A DNA stretch of 64,000 bases. Origin: Escherichia phage Av-05. Position numbers and translations under genes: made by a program. The notes beneath the pieces are model-generated. The model was not told where the DNA came from. It saw only the letters and a program-made list of their open reading frames with translations, and made no database searches. Every line of letters begins with the position of its first letter. Position 1 is the stretch's first letter. Shown here piece after piece: positions 3,284-48,281 of the stretch. The stretch lies in the sequence record KM190144; one strand, written 5' to 3'.

Positions 3284-3642
3284 TGTTGTACCTTTTTGTC
3301 TTTTCTTGCATTATCCCAAAAATTAAGGATATTTTGGTAACGGATTTTGTCTTCCATATATTCAGCTTCATCACGAAGACCACATACATGGTCTATTAAG
3401 GCACATACTTCATTATGGTATTCTGTGCCACTCGTGATGTGTTTAATCATACAAGATCCTGCTTTCCATTTCGAGAGGGAGTATCTCAGATTATCATCTT
3501 TTTCTGTGGGGAAAGCATCAACAAGCACCTTTGCTCTATTCCCTTGTATCGTTTGCACTGTTCCTCGGCGCAGTTCGTTATTACCCCAATAGATAAATAC
3601 TGTATCGCCAACAAATAATCTTGTTCCGCTTGCATCCCTCAT
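3280..3642 (-). CDS. Hypothetical protein
   Basis: ORF in track (3280-3660); GGGGG RBS before ATG at 3642. Confidence 0.4.
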   Translation of the reverse strand: MRDASGTRLFVGDTVFIYWGNNELRRGTVQTIQGNRAKVLVDAFPTEKDDNLRYSLSKWKAGSCMIKHITSGTEYHNEVCALIDHVCGLRDEAEYMEDKIRYQNILNFWDNARKDKKVQQ

Positions 3643-3643
3643 T

Positions 3644-3988
3644 TTATGCCCCCAACACAAAGAAATAATGAACTGTTACCGCTGCAAAGTAAAGCGTTTT
3701 GGAAATCAATCGTAGCCAGCAATCTCTGTTTGTATACACTTTTCCTGCTAAGATATTACTCCCTGTTACGATATTTCCCCACAGCCACACAACAAACAAG
3801 AATGCTCCGAGCAAACCACTTGTCGGTGGTGTTAATGTAGTAATCATCGCAATACCTTCGAGGGTGGCGAATATGAAGAAGTATGGAAATGCCTCCCTTA
3901 CACATTTTATTCCTTTGCCAGTAATGCAGGTATTAACTAAACCTATAAGACAAAATATCGTCCAAAGCACATACAATGTATAAACCAT
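3644..3988 (-). CDS. Membrane protein
   Basis: 114 aa, multiple hydrophobic segments. Confidence 0.4.
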   Translation of the reverse strand: MVYTLYVLWTIFCLIGLVNTCITGKGIKCVREAFPYFFIFATLEGIAMITTLTPPTSGLLGAFLFVVWLWGNIVTGSNILAGKVYTNRDCWLRLISKTLYFAAVTVHYFFVLGA

Positions 3989-6350: not shown

Positions 6351-6661
6351 GTATTCATATAATTAACAATATCTTTTACGGCTCTCTTTCCGTCTAGTGG
6401 ATAAACTATGTCATCGCTCATCCCACCGTGTTTTAGCATTGCTACCAGTCTAGTATATACCTCTTTTGGTCTTTTGCAAGTTCTTTTCTTCCATTTATGA
6501 CCGTCTGGGGAGTACTCCTTATCTTCAAGAGAGATATGAAGTATATCCCCTATAAACTCTTTAGCCTGTGTGCTGTAAAGTGGACGGTGGAATATGTAGA
6601 ATTTCATTGCTTGCTCCTTTGTTGTAATAACAATATCAGTGCAAGCCACCTGTGTCAACAC
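6335..6661 (-). CDS. Hypothetical protein
   Basis: ORF in track; overlaps cca start (coupled). Confidence 0.4.
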   Translation of the reverse strand: MLTQVACTDIVITTKEQAMKFYIFHRPLYSTQAKEFIGDILHISLEDKEYSPDGHKWKKRTCKRPKEVYTRLVAMLKHGGMSDDIVYPLDGKRAVKDIVNYMNTWAKK

Positions 6662-45079: not shown

Positions 45080-45451
45080 TTAATTAGCCAATTCAGCATC
45101 CAACGACATTATATACTCAGGTAGCTTTCGAATGTTCTCATACAGCACAATCTCTCCGTGTGTCAATGGCCTGATTTCTTTATCCACACCAACATTATTA
45201 TGGTAATCCCAATCTGCATCGACATGGACGAAGACCAGCGTTCCTCTATTGCCAGTCTTAGCGGCCTTTCTTACGATAATCTCTCCGTCTATTGAAGGTA
45301 GGCATCTTTTAAAGAACTTGTTTAAAAGTTTTTGTTGAATTGCTTCTGCCAAGATCATTTTGTCTTGGCTATCTATGATTCTTTTAATTTCAGAGTTGTT
45401 TACTTCAACATCAATAAGTTGTGTTGTTGTCTGGGTTCCTTTTACTTTCAT
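45080..45451 (-). CDS. Hypothetical protein
   Basis: Track ORF 45080-45544 trimmed to Met MKVKGTQ (45451) so it does not overlap the HNH gene. Confidence 0.35.
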   Translation of the reverse strand: MKVKGTQTTTQLIDVEVNNSEIKRIIDSQDKMILAEAIQQKLLNKFFKRCLPSIDGEIIVRKAAKTGNRGTLVFVHVDADWDYHNNVGVDKEIRPLTHGEIVLYENIRKLPEYIMSLDAELAN

Positions 45452-45461
45452 TATTTTTACC

Positions 45462-46100
45462 TTACTCTGATATAGGGTCTGTTTTTGATCTTCTTTTCTG
45501 GACTTTCTTGGGTCTTCCTGTGATATGTGACCATGAGTATCCATTATTTAAAGAAGATATTGTATTTCTGGAAACTCCGAATAGTTCCGCAATAGCTTTG
45601 TGTGTTATCCCACAATCAATAAGCCGTACAATCTCTAAAACTTTCTCCTTTGTAAGGACAGATAAATGATAATCATCACCAAATTTTTGGATTCTCCCCA
45701 TACTATAAGCCACTGTATTGTTATGGCTATAGGTACACCACTCAAGATTTTCAACTCTATTATTATGTCTGTTACCATCTATGTGGTTTATAATTGGAAC
45801 TCCTAGCACAGTTTTTCTGCATTCTTTCTGCAATTCTGGAGAAGGAGGCTCTTTAAAAGCCTCCGCTACAAGTCTATGGACTGAAAAACTTTTCCCTGAA
45901 TCTTTACCCCTTTTGTACAAGCACACGCTCGGATAGCATTGTGGAGATAAATTTTCACTTTTAGTTTTTAAATATTTCCACATTCCTGATTTAAAAGATC
46001 TTACATTTCCATAATTACTTACTTGATAATCAGGATACCCTACAATATCCTTCCAAATTTCCTCTACTTCATCAGTGGGAATCTGCCCATGTGTATCCAC
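45462..46100 (-). CDS. Free-standing HNH homing endonuclease (NUMOD4-like N-terminus)
   Basis: GYPDYQVSNYGNVRS motif and NHIDGNRHNNRVENLEW HNH motif; GTG start overlaps 3' end of polymerase exon 3. Confidence 0.65.
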   Translation of the reverse strand: MDTHGQIPTDEVEEIWKDIVGYPDYQVSNYGNVRSFKSGMWKYLKTKSENLSPQCYPSVCLYKRGKDSGKSFSVHRLVAEAFKEPPSPELQKECRKTVLGVPIINHIDGNRHNNRVENLEWCTYSHNNTVAYSMGRIQKFGDDYHLSVLTKEKVLEIVRLIDCGITHKAIAELFGVSRNTISSLNNGYSWSHITGRPKKVQKRRSKTDPISE

Positions 46101-46371
46101 AAAGATATTCTCCTGTAATTAAAACGGGAAGCCCCATTATCTTAGACGCTTTTTCTACACATTTTGTTGCAAGCTCTCCTACTGGGCAATGCAGTATCCT
46201 GTATTTCCCATACACATCAGGTTCAACAATAACTTTACCTGCTTTCACATAATGTCCGTCGAAACGATGGCCTTTTTCAAGCATCATATCTACATAGCTT
46301 TGTGCAGCCTCTAAGTTAGAATGCTCCGTTATTGATTTAAATCTTTCCGGTACTTGTACCTGTATCTCATC
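46072..46371 (-). CDS. DNA polymerase (family A), exon 3
   Basis: Begins DEIQV (completes motif C as ...YYH|DEIQV) and ends GLPVLITGEYLCGYTWADSH, like Pol I/T7 pol C-terminus. Confidence 0.6.
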   Translation of the reverse strand, partial: DEIQVQVPERFKSITEHSNLEAAQSYVDMMLEKGHRFDGHYVKAGKVIVEPDVYGKYRILHCPVGELATKCVEKASKIMGLPVLITGEYLCGYTWADSH

Positions 46372-47214
46372 CACTAGTTCAAGGAGTTCGCTACTCTCCC
46401 CCGCACCGTTACGTGCATAGCCACAAGATTTCTCCTGTGGGTCAGACTATATCATAACCCTTTTTCAAGGGTTCCTCCCGTTTGGACCGCGCTTGCTGGC
46501 CTACTCTACTCGCTTCTTCACATCAGATGAAGCTGATGCTATGCTTTCGATAGTCGTTGAACGTCACTTACCAAGTATAGTCTTTAGAGATATGCACCCA
46601 CAATCTCCGTTGTTTAATTCCTTTTACGGATGGGTAGGGGTATCCGAGATCTCTAATCTCGCATTGCCTTAGCCCTGACTGTAGCAATTCACAAATCTCT
46701 CTCACATCTTTTTCTGTGAGAATGGCATTCGCATTGTTTTCACCAATAGGTATAACACGTAATCCTGTATCGTAAGCATGTTTTATATTGCTGCCATGTG
46801 TCCCCCACTCAAGATTCCACGCTGCGTTATTAAGTTTGTTTCCATCTTTATGATTAACGCTGGTGAATCTTTCTGGATCTGGATTAGGCACAAAACATTC
46901 TGCCACCATCCGATGTATGGCTTTCGTACAGGACTTACCGTCTATCCTTATAATTGTACACAGATATCCCCTCCCATTATCAAATACCTGCAAGGGAAGT
47001 TTATCTCTTTTTGAAAGAGGCGTGGAACCATCTTCAAAAACTGTATACCCATGGTAATCTTTTGCTTTTACCATTTTACTATACCTCTTTAAGTTTTCGC
47101 TGCGGATTGGCATATTGTCCTTATAACACAATACATTATAAGAATCAACTTAGCTTTCCCGACAATTAGAGAGGTTTTCGACATGCATTACTGCATGAAG
47201 CCACAATGTTATTT
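46372..47214 (-). mobile_element. Group-I-intron-like insertion 2 in DNA polymerase gene, with HNH ORF
   Basis: Splits motif C; minus strand has R-like GTTCAACGACTA and S-like ATGATATAGTC elements; 5' exon ends U, insertion ends G. Confidence 0.55.
46568..47131 (-). CDS. Intron-encoded HNH homing endonuclease
   Basis: VNHKDGNKLNNAAWNLEWGTHGSN HNH motif; 187 aa inside insertion 2. Confidence 0.65.
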   Translation of the reverse strand: MCYKDNMPIRSENLKRYSKMVKAKDYHGYTVFEDGSTPLSKRDKLPLQVFDNGRGYLCTIIRIDGKSCTKAIHRMVAECFVPNPDPERFTSVNHKDGNKLNNAAWNLEWGTHGSNIKHAYDTGLRVIPIGENNANAILTEKDVREICELLQSGLRQCEIRDLGYPYPSVKGIKQRRLWVHISKDYTW

Positions 47215-47547
47215 ATGGTAGTAGATAACCCTTCTGACACCCTGGTCGTACCATCCCCGTTTCACCAATTCCCAATGGAACAGGACTCCCATGAGGTCAA
47301 ACAATGAAGCACCACCGTTTTGTTGGTAAGCATTCAGCAGAGAATGTTTAGAACGAGTCCAAATTTTACGCCCATCCATACCTGGAATATAGCGTCTCCC
47401 ATTTGCCTCCCAGAATTTTTCTAACCACTCCCTACGCATTTTCAACCCGAAGTTACTATCCCAGAATGCGTCTATTACAGCCTGTGCTCTATTAAGGGGG
47501 ATACCCAGCATTGCGGCTATCTTAGGAGCTTGTGCTCCATACATGAT
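47215..47547 (-). CDS. DNA polymerase (family A), exon 2
   Basis: IMYGAQAPKIAAMLG...YIPGMDGRKIWTRSKHSLLNAYQQNGGASL parallels T7 gp5 region FLYGAG...IKGLDGRKVHVRSPHAALNTLLQSAG. Confidence 0.6.
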
Positions 47548-48281
47548 CATATTGTTCAACATGGCTCGCTACACCATGCCCGTCCTTTTAGGAACTGCTA
47601 CATATTTCTATGCAGATCAGACTATATCTTCATCCTTTTCAGGATGCCCACCGCTTCGGCAGTCTGAAAGACTGGAGGTTTCCCTCACCGCTTGGCCCTA
47701 CGCCTTTCGGCTAGTCGTTGAAGTTTCGAATGCTTCCCAACATTTATGTTCTATTTGATGGCATTTTTTACAAAGTAATTCAAAATTACTTATTTCGTTA
47801 TTCGTCCTGTCATGGTCAATATGATGAACGCACCATTCATCTTTACCTGCATAAAGAAGATCTTTATTACATCTATTACAGTATCTTCTCTGTTCCTTTA
47901 TGACAGGGGATAACTTACGAAACATCGATATGCCATTTTTATAAAATTTGGACAATTTCCCACGAGGCTGCCCACCACCTTTTCCTATGCCAACTCTGTC
48001 AAGCCTATTTTCTCTTTCGGCCTTTCTGCGTCTATATTCTCTGGTTTTTATCTTTGAATATTCTCTTCTACAACCTTCAGAGAGACATACTTTTTGATTT
48101 TTACCAGTTTTAACACATTGTTCACCGCAGATTATACAACAAAATGTGCCCATATTCTCCCTCCTTTTGTAAGAGGGAAGCATTCGCTTACCTGCTGATT
48201 ATCTTCGACATAACTCGGTCAGATTTCCCAGCAATTCAATGGGTGCACCTTACAAATTACTTTGTAAGGGGGCTATCATTA
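47548..48281 (-). mobile_element. Group-I-intron-like insertion 1 in DNA polymerase gene, with HNH ORF
   Basis: Splits motif B region; R-like CTTCAACGACTA and S-like GAAGATATAGTC on minus strand; TAATGATAG stops in all frames right after exon 1. Confidence 0.55.
47698..48183 (-). CDS. Intron-encoded HNH endonuclease (Cys-rich zinc-finger N-terminus)
   Basis: CVHHIDHDRTNNEISNFELLCKKCHQIEH HNH motif; GGAGGGAG RBS. Confidence 0.65.
   Translation of the reverse strand: MLPSYKRRENMGTFCCIICGEQCVKTGKNQKVCLSEGCRREYSKIKTREYRRRKAERENRLDRVGIGKGGGQPRGKLSKFYKNGISMFRKLSPVIKEQRRYCNRCNKDLLYAGKDEWCVHHIDHDRTNNEISNFELLCKKCHQIEHKCWEAFETSTTSRKA

Follow-up and report, generated by a model that had tools for sequence, protein, structure and literature searches.

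A free-standing I-HmuI-like HNH homing endonuclease gene directly after the DNA polymerase gene of Escherichia phage Av-05

The DNA polymerase gene of Escherichia phage Av-05 is followed by an HNH open reading frame (ORF) that begins within the last polymerase codons and carries, near its own end, a 20-nt sequence much like the one at its start, which raises the question of whether this ORF is a homing endonuclease gene inserted next to the polymerase gene and whether the near-repeat marks the edges of the insertion. In the 64,000-nt stretch of DNA that we analyzed (record KM190144; the window), the ORF lies on the minus strand at 45462–46100 and encodes 212 aa between a GTG start and a TAA stop. 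The preliminary description had placed its start inside the last polymerase codons, and this proved correct: the ORF overlaps the last polymerase exon (exon 3) by 29 nt, the polymerase TGA stop being at 46072–46074, and the HNH stop is followed after 10 nt by the ATG of the next gene. It is the third HNH ORF at the locus; the other two (47698–48183 and 46568–47131) lie inside group I introns.

The upstream gene encodes a T7-like family A DNA polymerase, as judged from the intact homologue of phage VIK251, which matches T7 gp5 (E=1.4e-18) and Pfam DNA_pol_A. In the window this gene is interrupted twice. Intron 1 (minus strand, 47548–48281, boundaries approximate) falls in motif B, between ITYG and IMYGA, and contains the HNH ORF 47698–48183; its exon ends were placed by comparison with the intact polymerases of KB57 and Iguana. 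Intron 2 (minus strand, 46372–47215) falls in motif C, between YYH and DE, and contains the HNH ORF 46568–47131. It is absent as one block from two sequences of an E. coli assembly (L009 and L010; GCA_018865545.1), and in L009, where exons 2 and 3 are contiguous, YYHDEIQ is read without interruption (junction at L009 2728–2730), which sets the start of exon 3 at 46371 and its extent, including the TGA, at 46072–46371 on the minus strand. The Rfam model Intron_gpI matched intron 1 at 47598–47801 (47.5 bits, E=5e-10) and intron 2 at 46961–47224 (41.1 bits) and 46424–46728 (24.5 bits). All three matches are below the gathering score of 50 bits, so the intron calls rest mainly on natural intron-less alleles and on published splicing in a related phage (PMC7344957). 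Intron 2 was found in three states: with its HNH ORF (window), without the ORF (phage TH18, where 17 nt at L001 5932–5948 stand in place of ~531 nt), and absent (L009/L010). On these grounds the name "exon 3" is justified.

The protein encoded by the third HNH ORF matches Pfam NUMOD4 (E=1e-10, residues 14–42), HNH_3 (E=8e-8) and HTH_7 (E=2.5e-6), in that order, with both HTH_7 and HTH_23 matching at residues 147–182. The homing endonuclease I-HmuI (1U3E) was the sole PDB match by sequence (E=2e-11) and also the sole significant Foldseek match in the PDB (E=2e-8, 189 aligned columns, probability 1.00) to an AlphaFold (AF2) model that was made with 60 homologues, has a pLDDT of 90.9 and shows strands at residues 16–43. 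The HNH (beta-beta-alpha-metal) motif of I-HmuI contains a catalytic His and a metal-binding Asn; I-HmuI H75 and N96 align with H106 and N127 of the window protein, and N105, H106, N118 and N127 vary little or not at all among 106 homologues. Residue 130 is V in the window and H in 94 of the 106 homologues, and this H is also absent from I-HmuI and from the homologues in Mydovirus phages described below. The I-HmuI-like traits present comprise a NUMOD4-type N-terminal beta domain, the HNH motif, a C-terminal helix-turn-helix and an extended two-domain fold. In gene identity and fold, the ORF is an I-HmuI-type HNH homing endonuclease gene, for the product of which we infer nuclease activity, a target site and homing.

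Unlike the other two HNH ORFs, this gene lies outside any intron. The part of the protein that is homologous to relatives begins past the polymerase stop, the polymerase frame is complete at 46072 with a C-terminus like that of uninterrupted homologues, no intron signal was found downstream, and an Rfam search of 45400–46100 gave no intron match; the ORF was accordingly not classed as intron-encoded. A polymerase–HNH fusion produced by +1 frameshifting is unsupported, inspection of the sequence having found no slippery or RF2-like site around the stop codon. On its other side the gene is followed by a minus-strand gene of 123 aa (45080–45451), which matches no Pfam family and forms the right flank of the insertion.

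The preliminary description had proposed a comparison with relatives lacking the HNH gene. A megablast search of phage records returned four close relatives (TH18, 18-1-2, 19-1-2 and 24-2-1), all as two-piece matches that skip the HNH gene; TH18 was aligned in detail, and the other three are represented by their two-piece matches. In TH18, the matching blocks of which are 94–97% identical to the window, a 48-nt spacer (L001 6428–6475) separates the polymerase stop from the same downstream gene, which aligns with the window from its ATG on (L001 6476). The spacer contains a terminator-like hairpin GGTGCTGAAAAGCACC, a T-run and a GAGGTGG ribosome-binding site. In its place the window and L009/L010 have, as located by blastn and alignment, an extra segment of 622 nt (window 45452–46073, minus strand) that is essentially ORF-sized, and no terminator-like site was found on the window minus strand between the polymerase gene and the next gene. 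A 7-mer, GTAAGGT, that occurs in both the window and TH18 was considered as the true right boundary of the segment and is too short to decide the matter. The reading of the ORF as a free-standing HNH gene was thus borne out: it lies outside introns, is I-HmuI-like, and is present in some and absent from other near-identical relatives.

Two annotations or frames in this region call for comment. The TH18 gene "peg37" (L001 6401–6835) is annotated from the same GTG within the polymerase gene and runs through the hairpin in frame into the downstream gene, although the ATG at 6476 is more likely to be its start. An alternative ORF of the window (45080–45544) opens at an ATG in the second copy of the near-repeat and continues in frame into the downstream gene; it has no Shine-Dalgarno sequence and probably arose by chance. 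Both open frames are probably accidents of frame.

The HNH gene of L009/L010 is 99% identical to that of the window at the amino acid level and has identical junctions, and it occurs there without polymerase intron 2. Between the window and L009 copies there are 6 synonymous and 3 non-synonymous differences (over ~132 and ~504 sites, respectively), and the preponderance of synonymous differences, although the counts are small, suggests that the reading frame has been maintained. Together, the genomes present three configurations of three selfish elements in matching blocks that are mostly 94–98% identical, from which we conclude that the three elements assort independently; the high-identity sample comprises only two independent carrier sequences and one non-carrier lineage. 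A scan of IMG/VR with the conserved 20-mer ACAGGAGAATATCTTTGTGG recovered two loci only (Ro1 and an Iguana-like contig) and zero window-type alleles.

These configurations bear on a possible action in trans of the free-standing enzyme at the intron 2 site (motif C, 300 nt upstream), which would mobilize intron 2 by collaborative homing. The intron-2 HNH ORF and the free-standing gene are paralogues with 34% identity and have a single 300-nt exon between them, the ORF-less intron 2 of TH18 would need a helper, and homing in trans by T4 MobE with the I-TevIII intron has been described (PMC2790892). However, L009/L010 carry the free-standing gene together with an intron-less exon 2/3 junction, so an enzyme with this specificity would cut its own genome; TH18 retains intron 2 without the free-standing gene; and VIK251 and Ro1 have a homologue after polymerase genes that lack introns. 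We therefore consider action in trans on the intron 2 site very unlikely.

The preliminary description also held that the gene is bounded by the near-repeat, which it took as either an insertion boundary or a coincidence. The two minus-strand 20-mers are as described: copy 1 (GTGGATACACATGGGCAGAT, 46081–46100) and copy 2 (ATGGATACTCATGGTCACAT, 45525–45544), in direct orientation, are identical at exactly 16 of 20 positions (about 16 had been given), and they encode GYTWADSH of the polymerase and GYSWSH of the HNH protein. Copy 1 covers the codons for (C)GYTWAD of the polymerase; read in the +1 frame, it contains the HNH ORF's GTG and opening codons. Copy 2 spans HNH codons N-G-Y-S-W-S-H (residues 186–192), just past the helix-turn-helix. 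A direct match of this quality, with one copy at the start of the ORF and the other near its end, speaks for reading the near-repeat as an insertion footprint, that is, a target-site duplication or a homology used at entry that marks both ends of the segment. Copy 2, however, sits 74 nt within the extra segment 45452–46073 as defined by the TH18 empty site, the similarity ends at ~20 nt with unrelated sequence past each copy, and nothing repeated was found when the flanks of the cassette 45452–46073 were compared with TH18. The match is also at the level expected by chance. The local 1 kb contains one direct pair with at least 16 of 20 identities, shuffled versions contain a mean of 0.31–0.34 such pairs and at least one in 26% of cases, and the whole 64-kb window holds 36 direct pairs at this level within 700 nt of one another (0.56 per kb).

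Each copy of the near-repeat has its origin in a motif of its own protein family. The polymerase C-terminus follows G-x-x-W-x-x-x-H in every relative compared (GYTWADSH, GANWAQCH, GRSWADCH and GRNWAECH), and E. coli Pol I and T7 gp5 share this ending. The corresponding HNH motif, G-x-x-W-x-H, is conserved among the 106 homologues, which come from unrelated contexts (G in 65, W in 94 and H in 46 of 106); the site reads GRSWSS in the Mydovirus homologues and RRLWVH in the intron-2 paralogue. Conservation of the copy 2 motif in such contexts, the paralogue included, speaks against a footprint, as does the absence of the similarity from the Mydovirus carriers of a homologue in the same position, in which the two sites are only 9–11 of 20 identical (the VIK251 value having been counted by hand).

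One further observation could be taken to favor a footprint. At 46090, 46093 and 46096 there are three adjacent synonymous differences, the codons G-Y-T being GGA TAC ACA in the two carriers and GGT TAT ACT in TH18, such that copy 1 is closer to copy 2 in the carriers than in TH18 (16 versus 13 of 20). When polarized with NDO71 and Iguana (GGA TAT ACG), however, the three codon differences are split between the lineages, and there is thus no directional conversion. These differences could reflect co-conversion or target-site immunity, and they are not statistically distinctive. In the comparison of the window with TH18, the final 25 nt of the polymerase gene contain 4 differences and its remaining ~280 nt contain 10, but 46315–46323 shows a similar cluster and the right flank is flat; because of that cluster, the flat flank and the outgroup's splitting of the changes across both lineages, we dropped a co-conversion gradient as evidence. 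Given that copy 2 is internal, that pairs of this quality occur at chance frequency, that both copies belong to family motifs and that the match is low in the Mydovirus carriers, we conclude that the near-repeat is not an insertion boundary and plays no role in insertion or homing. A footprint is contradicted by these comparisons and scarcely credible, and the near-repeat is best read, from the sequences compared, as a coincidence in which two family motifs share G-Y-[T/S]-W with similar codons. Of the preliminary account, then, the free-standing HNH gene stood, and the repeat as its boundary did not.

The GTG at 46098–46100 is the sole in-frame ATG, GTG or TTG in the ORF list that lies 5′ of the NUMOD4 domain. 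It is preceded at a distance of 9 nt by a Shine-Dalgarno-like AGGAG (46110–46114, minus strand), found by inspection of the sequence within the polymerase codons T-G-E, which is likely the ribosome-binding site of the HNH ORF. The N-terminal 10–13 residues of the HNH protein are unmatched in most homologues, which mostly begin at window residue 10–13; this stretch is the polymerase 3′ end in the +1 frame and is modelled without secondary structure. At the position of ATG-GAA-ATA-TGG in the Mydovirus homologues, the window reads GAG-GAA-ATT-TGG. The gene's own start region has thus been lost in the window, and translation is therefore most likely from the GTG that lies 29 nt inside the polymerase gene. 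The gene may be silent if translation does not begin at this GTG.

The missing start would also fit a gene that is no longer mobile, either as a decaying remnant or as one recruited, for example, to exclude co-infecting relatives without copying itself. Unlike the Mydovirus homologues, the window gene lacks an ATG and a ribosome-binding site of its own, its flanks show no clear co-conversion gradient, and interference with co-infecting phages has been raised as a role of such genes (PMC12654880). Against this reading stand an unbroken ORF in two genomes that differ there mostly by synonymous changes, an intact catalytic signature, a confidently predicted fold and a good AGGAG-N9-GTG upstream. 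Presence and absence with clean, ORF-sized boundaries fits an active or recently active homing gene, and exclusion and homing can coexist. We consider it unlikely that the gene has lost its mobility, and we return below to homing as the favored reading.

The best tblastn matches in annotated phages (38–41% identity) were HNH genes in the same slot, directly after the polymerase gene, of the Mydovirus phages NDO71, Ro1, VIK251, Seu621 and the K54 series. The intron count of the polymerase gene makes no difference, these carriers having 0, 1 or 2 polymerase introns, with VIK251 and Ro1 having the homologue in the slot and none in the polymerase gene. The slot is empty in KB57 and Mydo, where the polymerase stop is followed by a hairpin AGGGGCTTCGGCCCCT, a T-run and the next gene, and ~17 further Mydovirus records match only 3′ of the HNH gene. 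In Iguana_ER37 and in an IMG/VR sequence (L013, UViG_3300045988_120042) the slot holds an unrelated gene, HNH-AP2. Because the slot is variously filled with an I-HmuI-like gene, empty or filled with HNH-AP2, we conclude from these alignments that it is a recurrent landing site, and the cassette replaces the terminator in both lineages, the window group and Mydovirus.

Several irregularities were observed in these relatives. The Mydovirus HNH genes are themselves mosaic: the first ~70 residues (NUMOD4) differ strongly between NDO71/Ro1 and VIK251/K54 (L004, from NDO71, 3498–3714 versus L003/L006), the remainder is ~96–98% identical at the DNA level, and the megablast match begins at query position 615. 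In Ro1 (L005 ~3455–3465) a 1-nt deletion in the last polymerase codons, GTGGGCAG to GT-GGCAG, removes the W-A-D-S-H end, and the annotated ORF continues into the HNH gene; either a sequencing error or a genuine frameshift could account for this. Between genera, the polymerase gene is a mosaic, in that Iguana_ER37 (L002 3631–6300) is 97–100% identical to KB57 (L007 832–3474) over ~residues 120–600, whereas its last ~140 residues are window-like (83–95%) and 48–60% identical to KB57, with the switch near the intron and endonuclease sites. A switch at this place is what homing would be expected to leave if it carried neighboring sequence from one phage to another, and as evidence of co-conversion the mosaic is suggestive only.

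The Iguana_ER37 gene also begins as the window gene does. Its HNH-AP2 frame (L002 6272–6814) is open only from the same GTG in the last polymerase codons, and its homologues align from residue 9–12 on. The same GTG begins genes of two unrelated families, I-HmuI-like (window and L009) and HNH-AP2 (Iguana_ER37 and L013), and in both families the part common to homologues starts only past the polymerase stop. The AGGAG-N9-GTG is also found in TH18, where there is no endonuclease gene. A tentative explanation, which we regard as possible and somewhat doubtful, is that the last ten polymerase codons (…T-G-E-Y-L-C-G-Y…, read in the +1 frame) might serve as a ready-made translation start for invading endonuclease genes. 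If this were true, the polymerase gene would supply both a conserved target and expression signals, and invaders could shed their own.

In domain order and fold, the window protein resembles I-HmuI, I-HmuII as well as I-BasI of the Bacillus phages SPO1, SP82 and Bastille (1U3E). The nicks made by I-HmuI and its relatives are in one strand and lie a few nucleotides away from where the element is inserted (PMC3428280). The genes of this group are also tied to a phage DNA polymerase gene, but they are encoded inside a group I intron, whereas the window gene is free-standing past the stop. I-HmuI and the window protein share ~31% sequence identity. The free-standing endonuclease genes of T4 vary in presence and absence among relatives and spread by break repair. 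T4 MobE (HNH) and the Seg genes are, like the window gene, outside introns and wedged between conserved genes, although they belong to another phage group and MobE to another HNH subfamily; unlike these T4-type genes, the window ORF probably owes its start codon and its ribosome-binding site to the closing codons of the gene before it. T4 mobE has been characterized as a free-standing HNH homing endonuclease gene that mobilizes itself and flanking DNA (PMC2790892).

The Mydovirus homologues (NDO71 orf017, Ro1_00251, VIK251_00014 and K54_rec4_61) have the slot and architecture of the window gene, share with it a C-terminal G-x-S-W-S...TG-x-P-x-K tail, likewise replace the terminator hairpin and are likewise polymorphic within the genus. 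They differ in keeping their own TAAGGAG ribosome-binding site and an ATG after a 29-nt spacer, in their 38–41% amino acid identity to the window protein, and in the downstream gene. We found no paper that discusses these 3′-end homologues, which are annotated in GenBank. The closest published parallel to the window locus is that of the Pectobacterium phage CB7 (Certrevirus, Vequintavirinae), which belongs to the same subfamily and the polymerase gene of which has two HNH-bearing group I introns with splicing demonstrated by RT-PCR (PMC7344957). Like the window, the CB7 and phiTE polymerase loci have two HNH introns and an extra free-standing HNH gene alongside, but the extra gene of CB7 is described at the polymerase 5′ end (PMC7344957), whereas that of the window is at the 3′ end.

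Taken together, the evidence makes it probable that the locus holds a free-standing I-HmuI-type homing endonuclease gene in an ORF-sized 622-nt cassette that has replaced a 48-nt hairpin spacer and that homes by an intron-less route; among free-standing HNH homing endonuclease genes it is an ordinary one, of a known type. By analogy with the systems above, the enzyme would be expressed from the GTG at 46098–46100, nine nt past the polymerase-encoded AGGAG. In a mixed infection it would nick or cut the HNH-less allele near the conserved polymerase 3′ end, and the gene would then be copied in, along with some flanking sequence, through recombinational repair from the carrier genome, as in the intron-less homing of free-standing phage endonucleases like T4 MobE (PMC2790892).

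In annotation, the ORF is best named as a free-standing HNH homing endonuclease gene of I-HmuI-like type, the polymerase is best entered as a single gene interrupted by two group I introns, and the near-repeat can be ignored. In related genera the same slot is held by different endonuclease families, and the polymerase gene seems to have been exchanged between genera in its 3′ part, so that the locus fits the published idea that nuclease genes lie at the boundaries of genetic exchange (PMC10448857). The finding has little importance beyond annotation; still, it is a tidy natural example of three independently assorting selfish elements at one polymerase gene.
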